The notes below the pieces were generated by a model. It did no database searches. It saw nothing but the letters and a program-made list of their open reading frames with translations, and was not told the origin of the DNA. From an uncultured Gammaproteobacteria bacterium (GTDB taxonomy: Bacteria; Pseudomonadota; Gammaproteobacteria; Magnimaribacterales; TMED112), in contig CAZNPG010000004.1 of NCBI GenBank assembly GCA_964575305.1, forward strand, positions 5,647 through 69,646: DNA of 64,000 bases, in the 5' to 3' direction. This document shows, piece after piece, positions 7,512 to 39,477 of this stretch. The position numbers were made by a program, and so were the translations under genes. Within the stretch, counting starts at the first letter, position 1. Each line of letters opens with the position of its first letter.

Positions 7512-8441
7512 TTGAGTTCTGAAACATTACTTATTGATTTGGGTGGGACAAACCTAAGGGCAGGTGTTGGTAACCCTGAATCTTTAAAAGTATCAGATGT
7601 CAAAAAATTTCCCATCAAAACAAATGACGACTTTTATAATGCTTTGGATTCAATAAATTCTGAGGCTAATTGTAATGAAATCATAATTTCTGCCGCTGGC
7701 CCATGTGAAAACAATACAATTTCCATGACAAATAGAGATCTTTCCATTTCAGGTACTGATGTTGAAAAAAGATTAGGTGCTTCAGGATGCTATTTGTTAA
7801 ATGACTGGGAATCTATTGGCTATTCTTTACCACTAATGAAAGACAATGATCTAAAAACCATTAAGCAAGGCAACTTAGATTTGCAGAATACTTGTCTTGC
7901 GATCGGTCCTGGCACTGGTCTAGGTTTTTCTGTGCTTAGGTATGTAAAAAATACTCCTTATGTATATGCAACGGAATTAGGAAACACAAAATCTTTTAAT
8001 GCATATTTCAGTAAGTTGTTTGAGGTGAATAATGATTTAGAATTTCTTGTTCTAGAAGATTTTCTTTCAGGGTCTGGTATAAAAAAGATTTATAAGGAGA
8101 AAAGTGGAGAAAGCTTAACCCCAGAAGAAGTAGTCGGAAATTATGGAACAAATGATTTAGCAACATTTGTTATCGATAAGTTTGTCATAGGCTTAGGTGT
8201 TTTGTTATCAGATTTGGCTTTAACTTTTAATGCAAAAGGGGGCATTTTTTTTGCAGGTAGTATAATGAGAACAATCTCAGAAATGAAAGCCATAAATATG
8301 CTTAAAGATAACTTTGAAAATCATCATTCAGAAGCCCACAATAATATTTTAAAAAACATTTCAATAAATTTAATTAACAAACAACATACGCCTTTGTATG
8401 GGAATTTGAATTATTCTGTCATAAGGAGGTTACATGAATAG
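7512..8441 (+). CDS. glk: Glucokinase
   Basis: IDLGGTNLR, LLNDWE, GPGTGLG, LEDFLSGSG; TTG start after a GGGGA RBS. Confidence 0.85.
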   Translation: MSSETLLIDLGGTNLRAGVGNPESLKVSDVKKFPIKTNDDFYNALDSINSEANCNEIIISAAGPCENNTISMTNRDLSISGTDVEKRLGASGCYLLNDWESIGYSLPLMKDNDLKTIKQGNLDLQNTCLAIGPGTGLGFSVLRYVKNTPYVYATELGNTKSFNAYFSKLFEVNNDLEFLVLEDFLSGSGIKKIYKEKSGESLTPEEVVGNYGTNDLATFVIDKFVIGLGVLLSDLALTFNAKGGIFFAGSIMRTISEMKAINMLKDNFENHHSEAHNNILKNISINLINKQHTPLYGNLNYSVIRRLHE

Positions 8442-10035
8442 TTTAGACTACTTAATAGTTGGATTTTATGCTGTTGCTCTTATAGCAATTGCAACTTACG
8501 TCTCTAGAACTAAAAAAGGAGAGGATAAAACACCAGAAGAGTATTTTCTGGCAGGTAGATCGCTTCCTTGGTGGGCTATAGGTACATCTTTAATTGCAGC
8601 AAATATTGCTGCTGACCAAATTATTGGTATGAATGGAGATGCCTATGCATTTGGAATGGCAATAGCAGTATACGAATGGACTGCAGCTGTAGCTTTAATT
8701 GTTGTAGGGAAGTTTCTGCTACCTGTTTATCTAAAACAACAAGTTTTTACTATGCCTCAATTATTATCTCAACGATACGATACGAGGGTGAGTAAATTAC
8801 TCGCTGTATTAATGTTAATAATGTATATCTTTGTGATTTTGCCCACTATTTTGTGGCTTGGTGCGAAAGCAGTAAACAATCTTACAGGTCTAAATTTAAT
8901 TATGGCTATGGTATTGCTGGGTTTATTATCTCTTGCCTACTCATTGTATGGTGGATTAAAAGCTGTCGCCTTTACTGATATTATCCAAGTTAGCTTGTTA
9001 ATTTTTGCAGGTTTATACGTTTCTTATGTAGGTTTAAATGCCATATCAGATGGAGCTGGAGCATGGGAAGGTTTTATGACCTTGCAAGCTAATTTCCCTG
9101 AAAAGTTTGATGCCTTATTATCTTATGTGCCTAAAGAACAAGATCCTGAAGCATATGGAAATTATGTAAAACTACCTGGTATATGGGTGCTGATTGGTGG
9201 TATGTGGATTGCTCATTTTTATTATTGGGGAACAAATCAATACATAACTCAAAGAGCACTTGGTGCTAAAAGTTTAAATGAAGCACAAAATGGCCTGATG
9301 TTTGCAGGTTTTTTAAAAATATTGATGCCTGTAGTTGTGGTTCTTCCAGGTTTAATAGCAGTTGCCCTTGAAGGCACAACTATACCTTCTCTTGAAGGCG
9401 ATAGAAGTAGAGCTTATCCATCCATGTTGTCATTGCTTCCTAATGGCATATTAGGGTTAACTTTTGCAGCATTGGTAGCAGCTATCGTCTCATCTTTAGC
9501 TTCACTAACAAACAGTGTTAGCACTATATTTACAATGGATTTATATAAAGGTGATATGTCAATGAACGATAAGAGTCTTGTTGGTGTGGGTCGAAAAGCA
9601 GGCCTTATTGGTTTGATTATTTCCATCATTGTTGCACCTATCTTCCTTGGAAGTTTAGACTCAGCTTTTCAGTATGTGCAAGAGTACATGGGTTTATTTA
9701 GTCCAGTAATATTATTTGTCTTCTTGTCAGCAATTATCTTCAAAAATTCAACTTCAAACTCAGTTTTATGGGGTTCTGCAACTGCCTTAATTGCAGGTGT
9801 AATAATGAAGCTTTATGTGGCAAATACTTCTGAATCATTAATTGAACCATTTATGCATCAAATGGCTATTTCATTTTTCTTAGCTTTTGTTGTCAGTAGT
9901 TTGCTCTCACCTAACAATGAGAATGCCAAAGTCTTTGCTTTAACTGCAGAGGATTTCAAAACCTCAAAGTTATTCAATATAGGGTCGATTACCATCGTTG
10001 CTATCTTGGCTGCAATATATATAAATTACGCATAA
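8434..10035 (+). CDS. Sodium:solute symporter (SGLT-like sugar/Na+)
   Basis: EEYFLAGRSLPWW, YGGLKAVAFTDIIQ, NQYITQRALGAK; many TM helices. Confidence 0.92.
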   Translation: MNSLDYLIVGFYAVALIAIATYVSRTKKGEDKTPEEYFLAGRSLPWWAIGTSLIAANIAADQIIGMNGDAYAFGMAIAVYEWTAAVALIVVGKFLLPVYLKQQVFTMPQLLSQRYDTRVSKLLAVLMLIMYIFVILPTILWLGAKAVNNLTGLNLIMAMVLLGLLSLAYSLYGGLKAVAFTDIIQVSLLIFAGLYVSYVGLNAISDGAGAWEGFMTLQANFPEKFDALLSYVPKEQDPEAYGNYVKLPGIWVLIGGMWIAHFYYWGTNQYITQRALGAKSLNEAQNGLMFAGFLKILMPVVVVLPGLIAVALEGTTIPSLEGDRSRAYPSMLSLLPNGILGLTFAALVAAIVSSLASLTNSVSTIFTMDLYKGDMSMNDKSLVGVGRKAGLIGLIISIIVAPIFLGSLDSAFQYVQEYMGLFSPVILFVFLSAIIFKNSTSNSVLWGSATALIAGVIMKLYVANTSESLIEPFMHQMAISFFLAFVVSSLLSPNNENAKVFALTAEDFKTSKLFNIGSITIVAILAAIYINYA

Positions 10036-32149: not shown

Positions 32150-35100
32150 ATGACTAAAAGATTACTTTTACTATTAGTTTCTCTAGGATTCTACGGTTTA
32201 GCATTTGCTGATCAGGAAGTCGACGAAGCGGCTGATCCTGTTGTCGAGCAAGTTGAAACTGGAGATGACTCAGACGAAGCCGAGCCAGAAGAAGTGGTTG
32301 TTACTGGTTCTAGAATTGCTAGAACTCAGTACGAAGTCGCTCAACCAGTGACTATCATTTATGGCGAGGAGTATGAAAATAGAGGTTATACAAATGCCGC
32401 TGATGCATTATTTGATGTACCAGGTATTGGTGTAACAAACTCTCTAACAAACGGTTCAGGCGGTAGCTTTGGTAACCAAAGCTCACTCAGTGTGGGTCAA
32501 GCACTCGCAAATAACTTTGGACTAGGATCAGGTAGAACATTAGTTCTAGTAAATGGAAGAAGATTCGTTGGATCTACATCTCCATTTGGTTCAGGTGGTT
32601 CAGGTAATGCCGTTGATATTAACAATATCCCATCAGTAATGATCGATAGAGTTGAAATTGTAAACGCTGGTGGTTCAGCAGTTTATGGTTCTGACGCTAT
32701 TGCAGGTGTTATTAACTACGTTCTCAGAGATGACTATGAAGGAGCAGCAATGACTCTTACATACGATGATTACGCAGGTATGTCATCTGATACATCATTC
32801 CAAGCTGTTATGGGTGGTAACTTTGCCGGTGGTAAAGGTAACATGGTAATGAACTTCCAATACGAAGAAATTGGAACAGTATTTACTGGTGATTGGGACA
32901 GATACTATGATAGAGAGACTGGCATGTGTAATACAAACTCACTTGTAAGAACATATGCTGCAGGCAAATCATATCAACAACAATACATTAGAGCTGGAAT
33001 GGTCGTACCTTTCACAGCTAATGTAGAAGGTGTTCCTCAAGTAACACAAACAGGTTGTATTGGACTATCAGCTATTCCTGAGACAGGAAAAGCTTCTGCA
33101 TATGAGTATTCATTTAAAGCAGGTACATATGGTCTTTGGTTCTACGATGGTGCACTAGGTTCAGATGGACAAATGTGGCACTTTGGTGGCGCTCCAGGTG
33201 ACCTAATGCCTTACGATGATGGTATTAACTATGGTAGTTCTTTCTTTGGTTTTGATAACCCAGCTGGTTATAGATCAGACTACAACACATTAAGAGCAGG
33301 ATTCGAAAGACTAAACTTCAGCATGTTCTCAAACTACGATGTTAATGACAACATGACAGTTTACTTTGATGCTTTCCACAATGGATTCTTCTCATTTGAC
33401 TACGGAAACACATCTGGATACCCATATTCAACATATGCGTTTGGATCAGGACAAGACTTCCCTCCAACAATAGGTATCGATAACCCATACTTAACTCAGA
33501 ATTCTGTAGATATTCTGAATTCATATGGACTATCAAGTTTCCACGTATCTAAATCACAAGTTGATTTACTTCAAAAAGGTGATGGTGGATATACAATCGA
33601 AAACAATAACTCAGTTTCAATGTACTCAGTAGGTGTTGAAGGTAGTTTTGATCTTGATGATCAAACATTCAACTACTCAGCTGGTTACTCAATTGGTAAT
33701 ACAGAGATTTATTCAGATGCCCCTGGTGTAATCGGAGCTAGATACGCTGCAGCACTAGATGTAGGTATTAACCCTGCAACAGGTGAGATTGATTGTAGAA
33801 TGAACTACGATCCAGATCGTGATCCAGCATTATATGATTATTCACCGTTTGCTCCTGGATATTTCACAGGTGGAACATTATATGGTCCTAGCATTTTAGG
33901 TGCTGTTGGTGATTGTGCTCCTTTAAACATTATGGGTAGAGGTGCTCCATCAGAAGCTGCTAGAAATTATGTTGGTACTAATTTAAGAACTAATGCATTT
34001 ATTGAGCAAGAAGTTACATTTGCTAACTTATCTGGTGATTTATTTGAAATGCCAGCTGGTGCAGTTAAAGCTGCATTAGGTTTTGAAGCTAGAGTAGAGC
34101 AAGGTGACTATAATGCATCTGCTATACAAAATCTTGGTTTAACTAGATCAGCTCCAAGACCATCATTAGGTGGTGGGTATGAAGTTGATGCTGATTACTA
34201 CGAAGTTAGTGTACCTCTAATGGGTGGCGACTGGACATTACCAGGTGTTGTCTCAATGGTTCTTGACTTCTCAGCTAGAACAATTGATAACTCAATTGCT
34301 GGTGCATACGATGTAGAAGCTACATCTTTGAACTGGAGAGTAATGGATGATTTAGCGATTAGAGTATCCGAGCAGACAGCTATTAAAGCTCCTGATCTTG
34401 GAGACTTATTCTTACCACAGATTACTACATTTAGTACAGCTGCTGACCCATGTGACTACAGATACAGAGAAGTCGGTAGAAATCCAGAAGTTAGACAAGC
34501 TAACTGTGATGCTGAAGGAATTCCAGCTGACTTTGTTTCATTAGTTGTTAATGCAACAGCAAGTGGTGTTACTGGTGGTAATCCAAATCTTATTAATGAG
34601 ACAGCGGATACTAAATCTACAGGTATCGTTTACCAACCTTCATGGTGGGGTGACGTATTCTTTGGTAGTTTAAACTTAGCTGCTGACTATATTGAAATTG
34701 AATTGAATGATTACGTAACTTCATTCTCTTTAACTCAAAATATGGAAGCATGTTATGACTACGAAACATATCCAAATAGTCAATTCTGTGATTCATTCAC
34801 AAGAGACGCTGATTTTGAAGTTGTAGATTTTGCAACTGGTTTAATCAACGCTGGTTTAATTGACTTTGCTACTTATGTTTATAAAGCTGACTTTGCTTTT
34901 GATGTATCAGAAATGGCATCATGGGTATCAAGAGAGAATGTTGCTATGGACTTAGGTTCAATGGCTATCAGATGGAGAGCTACGCAAGAAGACTTCTTTG
35001 CTAGTGCAGATTCTGGTGCTGCTGAAGACCTATCTTCTGCAACAGGACAGTTTGGTAACGATGAATGGTTCTACGATACATCAGTAGAGTGGGCTAAGGG

Positions 35101-35392
35101 TAACTGGTATGTATGGGTTCAAGGTAACTCAAGATCCGGTGGTGTTATAGATATTAACCGTCAGTTTGATGATGAATATCTAGGATACGATGGTAACCCT
35201 ATATTTGAATTTGATGGATATACTACTTACAACGGTGGTGTAGGTTATACAGTGAATGATGACACAACAGTCAGAGTAAACTTCTATAACTTAATGGACT
35301 ACGATGGATTTGAAGATGATGTCTTCACTCCAGAAGCAGACCTTCTCTTCGTTGGAAGACAAGTTAATGCAAGTGTAAACGTTAGATTCTAA
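32150..35392 (+). CDS. Large TonB-dependent receptor (1080 aa)
   Basis: EEVVVTGSRI, GRTLVLVNGRR, IDRVEI, VYGSDAIAGVIN, C-terminal Phe. Confidence 0.94.
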   Translation: MTKRLLLLLVSLGFYGLAFADQEVDEAADPVVEQVETGDDSDEAEPEEVVVTGSRIARTQYEVAQPVTIIYGEEYENRGYTNAADALFDVPGIGVTNSLTNGSGGSFGNQSSLSVGQALANNFGLGSGRTLVLVNGRRFVGSTSPFGSGGSGNAVDINNIPSVMIDRVEIVNAGGSAVYGSDAIAGVINYVLRDDYEGAAMTLTYDDYAGMSSDTSFQAVMGGNFAGGKGNMVMNFQYEEIGTVFTGDWDRYYDRETGMCNTNSLVRTYAAGKSYQQQYIRAGMVVPFTANVEGVPQVTQTGCIGLSAIPETGKASAYEYSFKAGTYGLWFYDGALGSDGQMWHFGGAPGDLMPYDDGINYGSSFFGFDNPAGYRSDYNTLRAGFERLNFSMFSNYDVNDNMTVYFDAFHNGFFSFDYGNTSGYPYSTYAFGSGQDFPPTIGIDNPYLTQNSVDILNSYGLSSFHVSKSQVDLLQKGDGGYTIENNNSVSMYSVGVEGSFDLDDQTFNYSAGYSIGNTEIYSDAPGVIGARYAAALDVGINPATGEIDCRMNYDPDRDPALYDYSPFAPGYFTGGTLYGPSILGAVGDCAPLNIMGRGAPSEAARNYVGTNLRTNAFIEQEVTFANLSGDLFEMPAGAVKAALGFEARVEQGDYNASAIQNLGLTRSAPRPSLGGGYEVDADYYEVSVPLMGGDWTLPGVVSMVLDFSARTIDNSIAGAYDVEATSLNWRVMDDLAIRVSEQTAIKAPDLGDLFLPQITTFSTAADPCDYRYREVGRNPEVRQANCDAEGIPADFVSLVVNATASGVTGGNPNLINETADTKSTGIVYQPSWWGDVFFGSLNLAADYIEIELNDYVTSFSLTQNMEACYDYETYPNSQFCDSFTRDADFEVVDFATGLINAGLIDFATYVYKADFAFDVSEMASWVSRENVAMDLGSMAIRWRATQEDFFASADSGAAEDLSSATGQFGNDEWFYDTSVEWAKGNWYVWVQGNSRSGGVIDINRQFDDEYLGYDGNPIFEFDGYTTYNGGVGYTVNDDTTVRVNFYNLMDYDGFEDDVFTPEADLLFVGRQVNASVNVRF

Positions 35393-35408: not shown

Positions 35409-35438
35409 AAAAGGGGAAGGAAACTTCCCCTTTTTTTT
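35409..35438 (+). terminator. Intrinsic terminator after the TBDR
   Basis: GGGGAAG-GAAA-CTTCCCC plus T8; short A-run upstream. Confidence 0.92.
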
Positions 35439-35446
35439 ATTTAAAA

Positions 35447-35468
35447 ATACTGTATACTTATACAGTAT
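35447..35468. promoter_or_regulatory. LexA (SOS) box overlapping a TATACT -10 element
   Basis: ATACTGTATA-CT-TATACAGTAT perfect inverted repeat; 18/20 match to TACTGTATATATATACAGTA. Confidence 0.85.
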
Positions 35469-35631
35469 GAAAGAATTAATAAATCATTTTTTAAAGCAAC
35501 CTTTAGATAACGTATATATTGAACGTGTTGCTTTTCAATATTTTGAATCTGACTATAAGGCTGCAGAAAATTTCCTTTGTTCACTCAGAGCTGAAAATAA
35601 TCACAATATTACTAAGAATTACTTCAATTAA
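35467..35631 (+). CDS. Unknown 54-aa protein, probably leaderless and SOS-regulated
   Basis: Hand translation MKELINHFLKQPLDNVYIERVAFQYFESDYKAAENFLCSLRAENNHNITKNYFN*; ATG overlaps the end of the LexA box. Confidence 0.55.
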   Translation: MKELINHFLKQPLDNVYIERVAFQYFESDYKAAENFLCSLRAENNHNITKNYFN

Positions 35632-35654
35632 GATCTGAAATAAATTAACATTTC

Positions 35655-35848
35655 TTTAGGTGTCCCACACTCTATTTACGCAGAGAAATATGGTGTGTTA
35701 GATTAATTCTCAGCCGAAGGAGGTGATCCAAATTAGTATTAAAACAAATTCAGGATTATTAGGAGGTAATTGCTGACACCAATTATGGCCTAAGTCCGAC
35801 ATAAGGTTTTAACTTTATGAATAGCCTCTTTTTTAGAGGCTTTTTTTT
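35655..35848 (+). ncRNA. Candidate structured RNA of unknown family
   Basis: Hand-folded helices 35666-35677/35686-35697, CAGC/GCTG, TGATCC/GGATTA, GGTGT/ACACC, 35800-35819; ends in terminator; no AUG-initiated ORF of note. Confidence 0.45.
35823..35848 (+). terminator. Intrinsic terminator 3 nt upstream of the EamA start codon
   Basis: AGCCTCT-TTTTT-AGAGGCT plus T7. Confidence 0.85.
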
Positions 35849-35851
35849 ACC

Positions 35852-36709
35852 ATGAATACAAAAGATTTTTTAACATTATTATTAGTCTCCTTTTTTTGGG
35901 GAGGTTCATTTTTATTCTTACGTTTATTAGTAATAGAAGGGCTAAACCCTTTACAAATCGTTTCTCTGAGAATGATGTTTGCTGCTATATTTATTGCACC
36001 CTTTTTTTTATTAAAGTTAAAAAAATATTCCTTTTTTGATCATGGTTTCTCTTTTCTATTAATTGGTTTACTCAATACAGCACTACCATTTACGTTATTT
36101 GCTTATGCGTCTGTTAATTTGGGAGCAGGATCTTTATCTGTATTACAAGCTACAGTTCCAATTCTTACAGCCTTAATTCTCTTTTCCCTGTATAGAGATG
36201 AATTTTCAATAATGAAGCTTGTAGGTGTATTAATAGGATTTTCAGGCTTATTTTTATTAGCTGGTCCTTCCGGTGAGTTAGATTTATTCTCATCTATCTT
36301 ATGTGTTATTGCATCATTGTCATACGCTATATCAGGTGTTTATTTAGCTAATACACCACAAAAAATTAATAACTCTTTTGTTGGTATGGGTTCTATTATT
36401 GTTGGTGCTATATTGCTTTCACCATTCTTAATTAATTATCACAGTGCAAATTTAAATATTAGTTCTACAGCTTGGCTTTATATAGCATTGTTGGGTGTAA
36501 TTAACACCTCATTAGCATATGTAATTTTTATTAAATTGATTAAACGAATTGGTTCATTAAACGCTTCATTCGTAACATACTTGGTGCCTGTATCAAGCAT
36601 CTCACTTGGCATACTCATTTTAGATGAAGTGTTTACTATAGATATGATTATTGGATCATCATTAATTTTCCTTGGAGTATTTTTCTCCAACAGAGAAAAG
36701 ACTAGCTAG
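35852..36709 (+). CDS. EamA/DMT family transporter
   Basis: FWGGSF, two repeated hydrophobic halves, YLVPV, GILILDE. Confidence 0.9.
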   Translation: MNTKDFLTLLLVSFFWGGSFLFLRLLVIEGLNPLQIVSLRMMFAAIFIAPFFLLKLKKYSFFDHGFSFLLIGLLNTALPFTLFAYASVNLGAGSLSVLQATVPILTALILFSLYRDEFSIMKLVGVLIGFSGLFLLAGPSGELDLFSSILCVIASLSYAISGVYLANTPQKINNSFVGMGSIIVGAILLSPFLINYHSANLNISSTAWLYIALLGVINTSLAYVIFIKLIKRIGSLNASFVTYLVPVSSISLGILILDEVFTIDMIIGSSLIFLGVFFSNREKTS

Positions 36710-37642: not shown

Positions 37643-37719
37643 TGGTGCGCCCGGGAAGACTCGAACTCCCGACATCCTGGTTCGAAGCCAGGCACTCTAT
37701 CCAGCTGAGCTACGGGCGC
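37643..37719 (-). tRNA. tRNA-Arg(TCG)
   Basis: GCGCCCGTAGCTCAGCTGGATAGAG...CCTGG-CTTCGAA-CCAGG...CGGGCGCACCA. Confidence 0.95.
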
Positions 37720-39392
37720 TAATATCCAGAAGCTTGACCATCCTTTCTGCTTTCGGATGCCCCATAATATACACCATCTTTTAACATTATTGCTTGGTAG
37801 CCGCCAAATCCACCCTTATCGTATTTTAGTTTATGTCCCTTATTTAATAGTTCTTGCCGTGTTTGATCAGAAAAACCTGATTCTAAGCTTATATAGCCTC
37901 CATCAAGCATTATCTCTCCCGTTGGTTGAGAAGAACCAACATGTCTTATTCTTGGTGCATCTCCAGCTTCCTGAAGATTCATATTAAAATCGATAAGATT
38001 AATAACTACTTGTGCATGTCCTTGAGGTTGCATAGCACCACCCATAAGACCGAAACTTATAAAAGGCATATCATCCTTAGTTATAAAGGCAGGGATAATT
38101 GTATGAAATGGTCTCTTACCTCCAACTAAAGAATTCTTATGGTTAGGATTTAAACTAAACATTTCTCCTCTATCTTGAAGCATAAAACCAAGGTCTTTAG
38201 GAACCATGCCAGAGCCCATGCCTCTATAGTTACTTTGTATAAGAGAAACCATATTTCCGAATTTATCAGCAACTGTAAGGTAAATAGTATCTCCATCTTC
38301 TAAACCAGCATCGAATCTAGTTGCAGCTTTATTTTTATTTATTAATTTAGTCCTAATAGATGCATAATTTTTTGAAATTAATTCAGATGTAGGAACATCA
38401 GAAAAATTTGGATCCGCATAATATTTAGCTCTGTCTTCATAAGCTAATTTTTTGGCCTCTGTAAAAAGATGAATATATTCAGCAGAATCTAGTTCCATGG
38501 AAGAGATATTAAAATTCTCAAGGATATTTAAAATTTGTAGCGCAGCTATTCCCTGGCCGTTTGGAGGCAACTCCCAAATATCATAACCTCTATAATTTGA
38601 GGATACTGGTTCTATCCATTCTGGTTCAAAATTTGCTAAATCTTTTATTGTTAATAAGCCACCTTGCGATTGGATGAAATCTGCAATACTTTTTGCTATA
38701 TCTCCACTGTAAAAATCTTGTCCATATGACGATGCAATTTTTTTATAGGTAGTTGCTAATTCTTTATTAGTAAAGATTTCTCCTTTGTCAGGTGTTCGCC
38801 CATTTTTCATCCAAACATTAGAGAAGTTTGGATAATTTTTAAATCTATTAGCTGATCCTTCTAAATAATATGCAACTAACTCAGAAACTGGAAAGCCATT
38901 TTCTGCATAACTAATTGCGTTATTAAATATTCCATTAAAATCTGCACTTCCAAATTTTTTATGAAGAGCAACCCATCCAGCTACTGCCCCAGGGACTGTT
39001 ACAGGTAAGGGCCCATATGCTGGGATCTTATCAAGACCTTGATTCTTAATAAAATCTATATTCATATCTTTTGGTGCAGGACCAGATGAATTTAAGCCAT
39101 ATAATTTTTTTGTTTTAGCATCCCATACAATTGCAAATAGATCACCACCAATACCACAGCCTGTTGGCTCTACTAGTCCGAGTACAGCATTTGCTGCAAT
39201 AGCAGCATCAATAGCATTTCCACCTTCTTTCAATACATCTATTGCCGTTTGCGTTGCTAATGGATGACTTGTTGCAGCCATTCCATTTTCAGCTATTACT
39301 TCAGATCTACTTGCGAAGGGAAGGCCAGTGATCCTATCGTAGCTAAAAACACTATTTAAGAAGAAAAAAAGAAGAATAATTTTATATTTCAT
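37719..39392 (-). CDS. ggt: Gamma-glutamyltransferase family Ntn hydrolase with signal peptide
   Basis: [22 protein letters not shown] nucleophile, [13 protein letters not shown]; start moved to ATG 39392 because the longer ORF overlaps a tRNA. Confidence 0.92.
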
Positions 39393-39400
39393 AACTAAAA

Positions 39401-39477
39401 TGGTGCGCTTGGGAAGATTCGAACTCCCGACCTCTTGGTTCGTAGCCAAGCGCTCTATCCAGCTGAGCTACAAGCGC
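39401..39477 (-). tRNA. tRNA-Arg(ACG)
   Basis: GCGCTTGTAGCTCAGCTGGATAGAG...CTTGG-CTACGAA-CCAAG...CAAGCGCACCA. Confidence 0.96.

Follow-up and report, generated by a model that had tools for sequence, protein, structure and literature searches.

The organization, conservation and expression of an RNA element of about 190 nucleotides (nt) were evaluated in a 64,000-nt stretch of DNA (the window) from an uncultured gammaproteobacterium. The element, which consists of a conserved block and an intrinsic terminator, extends from about 35658 to 35848, and it is located between ORF54, a gene for an orphan small protein, and eamA, a gene for a DMT-family transporter. The element and the features of this locus described below are on the + strand. 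It contains a 14-nt complement of the 3' end of 16S rRNA, which is an extended Shine-Dalgarno (SD) sequence termed SD1. The explanation best supported by the evidence, put forward tentatively, is a role in cis, in which the element would serve eamA as a transcription attenuator, or riboswitch-like leader, with this super-SD as its switching strand. Leaders and attenuators are a known kind of RNA, and the unusual feature of this one is that the proposed switching strand is a perfect extended SD. The first-pass annotation of the window, made from the letters alone, had ranked a leader controlling eamA last among its suggestions. This suggestion fared best, given a gap of 0-4 nt between the terminator and the eamA ATG, an AGAGG motif as the only SD of eamA, and a predicted antiterminator formed from the 14-mer.

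Conservation and expression of the element

SD1 (AAGGAGGTGATCCA, 35717-35730) had no second copy in the window, also with 2 mismatches allowed, and the number of exact copies expected from the base composition (33% G+C) was about 2e-4 per 64-kb window. It is a perfect complement of positions 1528-1541 of the 16S 3' end (E. coli numbering). Duplex energies were computed against the canonical gammaproteobacterial 16S 3' end, which may not equal that of the host. The predicted duplex was -27.4 kcal/mol for the SD1 region, -21.7 kcal/mol for the runner-up site of the whole window, and -13.4 kcal/mol for the top gene-associated SD (8422, upstream of a Na+/solute symporter gene). A second SD-like box, SD2 (TAGGAGGTAAT, or UAGGAGGUAAU as RNA), was confirmed by sequence at 35760-35770, and its predicted duplex was -12.8 kcal/mol. 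No other SD-like site of the window comes close to SD1, and SD2 is only comparable to the best real SD. The first-pass annotation had placed the 14-nt complement at 35718-35731, one base off, and had called both boxes the strongest that it noticed in the window; the complement is real, and the ranking held for SD1 only. The gene set around the element was SD-poor, as 28 of the 49 open reading frames (ORFs) of at least 150 amino acids had a match of 3 nt or fewer upstream of their first ATG. Unlike this mostly SD-poor window, the Na+/solute symporter gene (8434-10035) is preceded by a 9-nt SD (TAAGGAGGT, 8422-8430). A fragment of 16S or a primer artefact was rejected as the source of SD1 because the match was limited to 14 nt, its flanks were unrelated, and it recurred in dozens of independent assemblies. 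No second copy of the element was found by nhmmer over the window and all fetched loci.

Conservation was evaluated in 44 syntenic loci taken from marine metagenomes and anchored by ORF54 and EamA homologues. The element was borne by 38 fetched loci, and the 14-mer was exact in all 38. Among these was the locus of the uncultured marine metagenome-assembled genome 'Gammaproteobacteria bacterium CPC44', the only locus reached through EamA in the species-representative genomes. The conserved block began abruptly at approximately 35657-35658. The DNA identity of the syntenic loci to the window was 94.6-100% over the RNA core (35657-35822), in contrast to 72-82% for ORF54 and mostly 74-83% for eamA; the core was thus strongly conserved relative to its flanks (72-83%). 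No match at the gathering threshold was obtained for 35640-35850 with Rfam 15 (4227 models). The matches at E <= 10 were at chance level only, with 21 bits for the rimP leader (threshold 47) and 17 bits for RyhB (threshold 55), both driven by the terminator. Hence, the structured, terminator-ended, noncoding RNA described from the sequence indeed lies outside Rfam, and the element is probably a new RNA family. Nothing similar to the element was found in phage records. In viral contigs, one chance match inside a coding region was obtained, and two family-specific patterns returned none. An abundant noncoding RNA, apparently a different one, was described in a sugar-metabolism region of SAR86 genomes from the metatranscriptomes of Shi et al. 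(2009) (Dupont et al., 2012; PMC3358033). The element may have been sighted earlier as an anonymous 'psRNA'.

Diverged relatives (var2, var3, two or three lineages without G35716, and rec7) were read in part, from listed differences and the 30-nt overhangs of RNA and DNA contigs. The readable parts retained the CAGAGA loop, UAGAU(U/G)AAUUCUC, the SD1 core (at least AAGGAGGUGA where readable), (U/A)CAGGAUU, (Y)AGGAGGUAAYUGCUGAC and, where read, GUCCGAC, and they varied in the P0 stem, the linker at 35742-50, P3 and P4. A scan with CAGAGAB-N21-25-GCCGAAGGAGGTGA was fruitless, partly because several relatives lacked G35716 or had an A at this position, and the 12 metagenome matches to this pattern (12/12) were rejected as chance matches in high-G+C DNA. 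In var2, the terminator was followed by A|TGAACTTCAAAAATTTTCTTATT, which encodes MNFKNFLIL, the N-terminus of EamA (MNTKDFLTLL in the window). In several further lineages, contigs covering the eamA start showed a GGCCUCUUU...AAAGAGGCC terminator (...ACUUAUGGAUAGGCCUCUUU-loop-AAAGAGGCC) abutting the eamA ATG. At least one diverged version, and probably several, therefore lay directly upstream of eamA, so that the order element, terminator, eamA was conserved well beyond the clade of the window. The var2 RNA contig of run X3, which covers 35696-35742 of the window, read AAAATCACAGGA|AATCAGAGAGATACAGCA upstream of 35696. Here, sequence resembling the var2 stretch at 35744-55 is directly followed by sequence resembling 35678-95, and the var2 DNA contigs read CATGTTCTATCAAATCAGAG... 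at that place. Possible origins of the junction are a chimera formed in the cDNA, an error of assembly and a further lineage.

Two lineages were free of the element. In the P0146 clade (L036-L041; 3165-3232), the receptor gene upstream of the locus, the LexA box, ORF54 and eamA were kept, the element was absent, and the gap between ORF54 and eamA was 66 nt. In the second lineage, found in DNA runs, the eamA ATG was preceded by TCCTTTAAATATACACTACGAATTTAATAA. The 66-nt spacer was rejected as a remnant of the element because 110-127 of 1000 shuffles were equally similar. Judging from these sequences, either the element is not essential, or gain or loss of it has occurred within the group.

Words of the element were found in more than 14 marine metatranscriptome runs. 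The transcript evidence consisted of assembled contigs, and the depths were averages given by the assembler. ORF54 and the element were joined in contigs covering 35473-35766 (run X3, depth 186, 118-Mb run), 35517-35797 (depth 27) and approximately 35558-35833 (extent inferred from length), and no terminator was found between them (35631-35823). These spanning contigs indicated one transcript for ORF54 and the element, presumably started at the LexA-box promoter. The X3 contig began 6 nt after the ORF54 ATG, which fits a leaderless mRNA. In runs X3 (depth 186), X1 (27) and X25 (35), ORF54 and the element were covered deeply and no eamA contig was present. Contigs extending past 35848 into eamA were found in X6, X8, X10 and X11, and in X3 as a 514-nt contig from a diverged lineage. 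Hence, both terminated and read-through forms seem to exist. Two RNA contigs began exactly at 35658, the edge of the strain-invariant block. The ends of contigs were rejected as evidence for RNA ends because they coincided with the borders of this block.

Hairpins and the predicted switch

The 5' hairpin P0 (35666-35697) was identified from predicted folds and covariation. It pairs 35666-71 with 35692-97 and 35673-77 with 35686-90 around the loop ACGCAGAG. When the overhangs of var2 and var3 were included, compensatory changes were found in 5 of its 11 pairs, 96.5% of cells were paired, and none of 500 shuffles reached the score. Hairpin P3 (35759-35793, predicted folds) contains SD2 and the loop CUGACAC. 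At the pair 35760-35792, six sequences had U-A and three (L030 clade) had C-G, and its pair 35770-35782 was C-G in three diverged lineages and C.A in one. Covariation thus backed P0 strongly and P3 weakly (one or two pairs, with the C.A exception), and together the two hairpins indicated a folded RNA. In diverged lineages, the lower stem of P3 was GGAUU/AAUCC and SD2 was situated in an internal loop. The sequence of SD2 was kept while its pairing changed, which argues that the sequence is read by something. Hairpin P4 (CAUAAGGU-UUUA-ACUUUAUG, 35800-35819) was obtained from predicted folds, and the syntenic loci changed in its loop only; the pairs of P2, described below, and of P4 were invariant. 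GGUGUC (35659-35664) is perfectly complementary to GACACC (35776-35781) in or beside the P3 loop, a possible pseudoknot.

The intrinsic terminator, obtained by terminator prediction, has the stem AGCCUCU/AGAGGCU (35823-35841) and a run of eight U to 35848. Its stem was kept and its loop varied in all loci. The 5' arm is anti-SD-like, and GCCUCUUU was also kept in the diverged-lineage terminators that abut the eamA ATG. GGAUU (35753-35757, within UUCAGGAUU), which contains the GGA most similar to a CsrA site, has two alternative partners, GAUCC (35725-29) and GUCC (35794-97). GGAUU was present in all diverged relatives, where the downstream partner was AAUCC instead of AGUCC. A hand fold in the first-pass annotation had placed a GAUCC/GGAUU helix inside a CAGC/GCUG helix, with further hairpins and a terminator. 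The inner helix was recovered in the RNAalifold consensus, and the further hairpins were predicted at 35666-35697, 35759-35793 and 35800-35819 together with the terminator (35823-35841 and U8). The CAGC/GCUG helix was rejected, since it was not predicted and one diverged relative had CUGU at this position.

The consensus fold given by RNAalifold lacked the terminator and contained two helices that involve the 14-mer. P1 paired GAAGGAGGU (35716-24) with GCCUCUUUU (35824-32), which belongs to the 5' arm of the terminator, and P2 paired GAUCC (35725-29) with GGAUU (35753-57). The antiterminated form had the lowest energy when transcripts ending at 35832 or 35834, ahead of the 3' arm of the terminator, were folded. 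At full length, the two forms were nearly equal, with -45.2 kcal/mol predicted for the terminated and -43.6 kcal/mol for the antiterminated form. The whole 14-mer was predicted to be single-stranded in the terminated fold and paired in the antiterminated fold. In the proposed OFF state, the terminator (35823-35841) would form, GGAU (35753-56) would pair with GUCC (35794-97), the super-SD would be free, and transcription would end at 35848. The terminated RNA would build up as a species of about 190 nt or, with ORF54 included, as a transcript of about 380 nt. In the ON state, the super-SD would be fully paired through P1 and P2, the terminator would be blocked, and the AGAGG of its 3' arm would be freed as the SD of eamA. 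The attenuator may in this way gate the read-through into eamA from the LexA-controlled ORF54 transcript, and perhaps also from a weak promoter of its own. Occupancy of the super-SD by anything would force OFF, and stabilization of the P1-closed junction would force ON.

The linkage to eamA was observed in every lineage in which this junction was read. Between the end of the U-run and the eamA ATG, the window has 3 nt, and the gap was 0-4 nt throughout the syntenic variants. A promoter would not fit into this gap, which makes eamA dependent on read-through. No SD was found for eamA apart from the AGAGG, which is 10-12 nt upstream of the AUG, depending on the lineage, and is predicted to be freed only in the antiterminated fold. 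The near-invariance of the core (95-100% versus 72-83% in the flanks) fits bases held by two pairings and a partner. The predicted fold that rivals the terminator draws on precisely the strand that is best conserved and most unusual.

Taken as a pair, the internal partners GGAUU and GCCUCUUU look like the 16S tail (GGAU..CCUC.UU against GGAUCACCUCCUUA). Because these strands mimic the 16S 3' tail, the anti-SD of free 30S subunits was preferred as the effector; CsrA or a small molecule may serve as alternatives. In such a ribosome-sensing attenuator, the 16S tail of free 30S would compete with the split internal mimic (GGAUU and GCCUCUUU) for the 14-nt super-SD, and the availability of free 30S would set both transcription and translation of the transporter within the SOS operon. 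The abundant terminated RNA might also feed back on the pool of free anti-SD in an SD-poor organism. Occupancy by the anti-SD would explain the extra 5-6 bases of 16S complementarity and SD2, unlike occupancy by a small molecule. On its own, this specific version of the attenuator is doubtful.

Several points weigh against the attenuator. P1 and P2 were invariant in all readable sequences, so the key helices were devoid of covariation, and 130 of 2000 dinucleotide shuffles of the upstream region gave a duplex at least as strong as P1 alone (-10.9 kcal/mol; p approximately 0.065). The folding z-score of the whole element was -1.9. Two related lineages manage without the element. The adjacency to eamA could be plain synteny, given that all carriers are related, and eamA could also be expressed through a leaky terminator. 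Contig depths are means from the assembler, strain variation may account for contig ends, and carry-over of DNA into the RNA libraries is possible. Moreover, 30S, CsrA and a ligand are only candidate effectors.

Alternative explanations and comparison with known leaders

The element may instead act in trans, as a small RNA derived from a 3'-untranslated region (UTR) or as an independent one, in which case the exposed super-SD would pair with the 16S tail and titrate or re-programme 30S, and eamA would be a leaky neighbor. In one version, mRNAs that lack an SD or a leader, for example that of the co-transcribed ORF54, would be favored during SOS. This explanation is unlikely on present evidence, although it could coexist with a cis role. 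It is consistent with a 14-nt complement at -27.4 kcal/mol that is unrivalled in an SD-poor genome and invariant in 38 loci, with the prediction that the 14-mer is about half unpaired in the terminated RNA, and with the high depth in the metatranscriptome (186-280 in the 118-Mb run). Co-transcription with an apparently leaderless gene under a LexA box points the same way, as does the retention of the SD2 sequence where its pairing status differs among lineages. However, stoichiometric titration of ribosomes would demand very high copy numbers, and the sister clade has the LexA box and ORF54 without the RNA. A trans role also leaves unexplained the fusion of the terminator to eamA in all lineages and the matching internal partners of the 14-mer. 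A strict metabolite riboswitch is a sub-case of the attenuator, in which P1 would close a three-way junction that binds, as an aptamer, a compound exported by EamA, and the likeness to an SD would result only from the role of the switching strand as an anti-anti-SD. P1 was predicted to close the P2/P3/P4 junction and to compete with the SD-hiding terminator, the junctions and loops were extremely conserved, and a riboswitch upstream of EamA genes has precedent (PMC7266159). The taxonomic range is nevertheless very narrow, the gene context suggests no ligand, and the extra 5-6 bases of 16S complementarity and the conserved SD2 are left unexplained, which makes this small-molecule version rather improbable.

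Binding of CsrA/RsmA was considered in two forms, as a small sponge and as a leader in which a CsrA dimer would bridge AAGGAGG (35717-23) and UCAGGAU (35750-56) to control termination. Three conserved GGA motifs (35719, 35753 and 35762) were all kept in diverged relatives, and their spacings of 34 and 9 nt were inside the dimer-bridging range. The consensus selected in vitro (SELEX) for CsrA is RUACARGGAUGU, which the middle motif (U/A)CAGGAUU resembles; AAGGAGGU fits ANGGANGU. Known sponges, however, have many more GGA motifs, usually at least 5 and mostly in hairpin loops, whereas the middle GGA of the element was fully paired in the predicted ensemble. The models of CsrB, CsrC, RsmX, RsmY and RsmZ were unmatched even at E <= 10, no GacA/UvrY box (TGTAAG-N6-CTTACA) was found in 35500-35657, and csrA was not found within the 64-kb window. 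Furthermore, the other 9 bases of the 14-mer are not needed for CsrA binding. The sponge suggested by the first-pass annotation is weak on these grounds, and a CsrA-binding RNA of either form is quite unlikely. That annotation had also proposed a non-AUG peptide or a type I toxin-antitoxin element, and the mini-ORFs were present as described (ATT, 35732-35776; CTG, 35773-35793). In a leader-peptide attenuator or tiny gene, SD1 would drive an AUU-initiated frame of 14 codons (35732-35776, peptide ISIKTNSGLLGGNC), which starts 8 nt past the SD1 core and is probably no gene, and the progress of the ribosome would decide termination. The 8-nt spacing is suitable, and the frame was open, of constant length and ended by the same UGA in all variants read, with the synonymous changes UUA to UUG, UUA to CUA and AAU to AAC. 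Exporter genes are often under leader-peptide control, as found in Term-seq studies of antibiotic-responsive leaders. In contrast, AUU is a very poor start codon that never became ATG, GTG or TTG in a homologue, and no AUG, GUG or UUG was present at a usable distance from SD1. Variation, with non-conservative changes, affected 5-6 of the 14 residues (K4I, T5/N6 to Q/Y or L, L9F, L10S and C14Y), and the apparently synonymous changes were equally explained by the P3 helix and the variable linker. The CUG and AUG mini-ORFs after SD2 were not kept in diverged relatives. ISIKTNSGLLGGNC and LTPIMA are not hydrophobic membrane peptides, which speaks against a type I toxin; at the locus, no antisense terminator or promoter was found, and ORF54 was predicted to be a soluble three-helix protein. 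Control through a peptide is very unlikely.

The attenuator has partial counterparts among known systems. The thiM TPP (thiamine pyrophosphate) element is a translational riboswitch with an anti-anti-SD element, and in both RNAs the real SD and an SD-like strand are rivals for pairing with an anti-SD-like strand. In the element, the 14-nt complementarity to 16S far exceeds what pairing with an anti-SD mimic of 6-8 nt requires, and a second SD-like box is conserved. The ermK, bmrCD and vmlR leaders mediate attenuation of exporter and resistance genes by ribosomes, and they share with the element a strong SD in the leader followed by a terminator before a transporter gene, where ribosome occupancy would decide the outcome. 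In contrast to these leaders, the element has no canonical start and no conserved leader peptide, and the signal proposed is occupancy of the SD rather than stalling in an upstream ORF. CsrB, RsmY and RsmZ are likewise abundant in RNA data, ended by a terminator and provided with SD-like GGA motifs; the element differs from them in its three GGA only, the lack of a covariance-model match and of a GacA box, and identity well beyond the GGA cores. As in small RNAs derived from 3' UTRs, the transcript and the terminator are shared with the upstream ORF54, but the downstream gene starts right at the terminator, and processing or an internal promoter is only a candidate here. The orphan riboswitch class ykkC subtype 2d controls transporters annotated as EamA (EamA/TauE) (PMC7266159). 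The element shares with such leaders a structured 5' region that is read in the same direction as the DMT/EamA transporter gene behind it. Like riboswitch and attenuator leaders in general, it has an intrinsic terminator immediately before the gene, which also masks the SD of the gene, and a predicted, mutually exclusive helix through the 5' arm of the terminator. Unlike ykkC, it has no match to that class in sequence or structure, is restricted to one marine gammaproteobacterial clade, uses a 14-nt 16S-tail complement as its switching strand, and is situated inside an operon after ORF54 and not after a promoter only.

Significance and neighboring genes

The carriers are abundant, uncultured, low-G+C Gammaproteobacteria of the surface ocean, the gene regulation of which is little known. 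They may be SAR86-like, to judge by the low G+C, the wealth of TonB-dependent receptors and the marine surface waters from which the samples came. Few sequences at its locus are as conserved as the element, which is readily assembled from ocean metatranscriptomes and is outside Rfam, so the family is worth annotating. If the switch model is true, the element would be a testable case of an RNA with a perfect SD as switching strand. If 30S is the effector, ribosome availability would be linked directly to termination without a leader peptide, which might help explain why a canonical anti-SD is retained in SD-poor bacteria. Through this locus, the SOS response of these bacteria would also come to include a DMT exporter and an orphan small protein.

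A gene for a TonB-dependent receptor (32150-35392) is located upstream and is followed by a terminator (35409-35434). Next is the LexA (SOS) box TACTGTATACTTATACAGTA (35448-35467), read from the sequence, with the core CTGT-N8-ACAG at 35450-35465. CTGTN8ACAG occurred once in the window, and the box ends on the A of the ORF54 ATG. It was identical across all related loci, including the clade without the RNA. The SOS link suggested earlier is plausible in view of this perfect gammaproteobacterial box and the contigs joining ORF54 to the element; the sister clade, however, keeps the box, ORF54 and eamA without the RNA. ORF54 (35467-35631), the upstream gene of the transcription unit shared with the element, encodes an orphan three-helix protein of 54 amino acids and is probably an SOS-induced, leaderless gene. 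Its substitutions relative to homologues were mostly synonymous, and its AlphaFold model had a pLDDT of 83 with three predicted helices. No Pfam, NCBIfam or PDB-fold match was obtained for ORF54, and a known SOS protein was rejected as its identity in the absence of any such family or fold match. Its homologues have 54-56 amino acids, and the 28 protein clusters known are all from this marine clade.

The spacer between ORF54 and eamA is 220 nt. A candidate promoter of the element itself was read from the alignment at 35623-35651, with TTCAAT (35623-28), a spacing of 17 nt and TAACAT (35646-51). The TAnnAT hexamer (35646-51) was kept in the alignment and was followed by a strain-variable stretch of 6 nt (35652-35657). 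This arrangement looks like a weak promoter, and the promoter consensus scan gave nothing above its threshold at 35623-35651. The presumably controlled gene eamA (35852-36709) encodes a transporter of 285 amino acids (Pfam EamA, 8e-40) with weak NCBIfam matches to 2A78 and YedA. The terminator hairpin and U-run are flanked by two copies of ATGAATA, a direct repeat of 7 nt (35816-35822 and 35852-35858), the second of which is the start of eamA. The repeat could be a trace of insertion or duplication of the terminator, or could be due to chance. Within codons 11-19 of eamA, a terminator-like hairpin (AGTCTCC-T7-GGGGAGGTT, 35884-35906) was observed, the CU-rich arm of which is also able to pair with SD1 in a longer fold. 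It is probably incidental because its sequence was absent from the syntenic locus L001. Downstream, the ORF of a gamma-glutamyltranspeptidase (37719-39449, - strand, 576 amino acids, TTG start) overlaps a tRNA gene (39404-39477) at its 5' end. Its homologues are shorter, with 557 amino acids, which places the real start codon downstream of the called one. The 3' end of the gamma-glutamyltranspeptidase gene is abutted by another tRNA gene (37646-37719).

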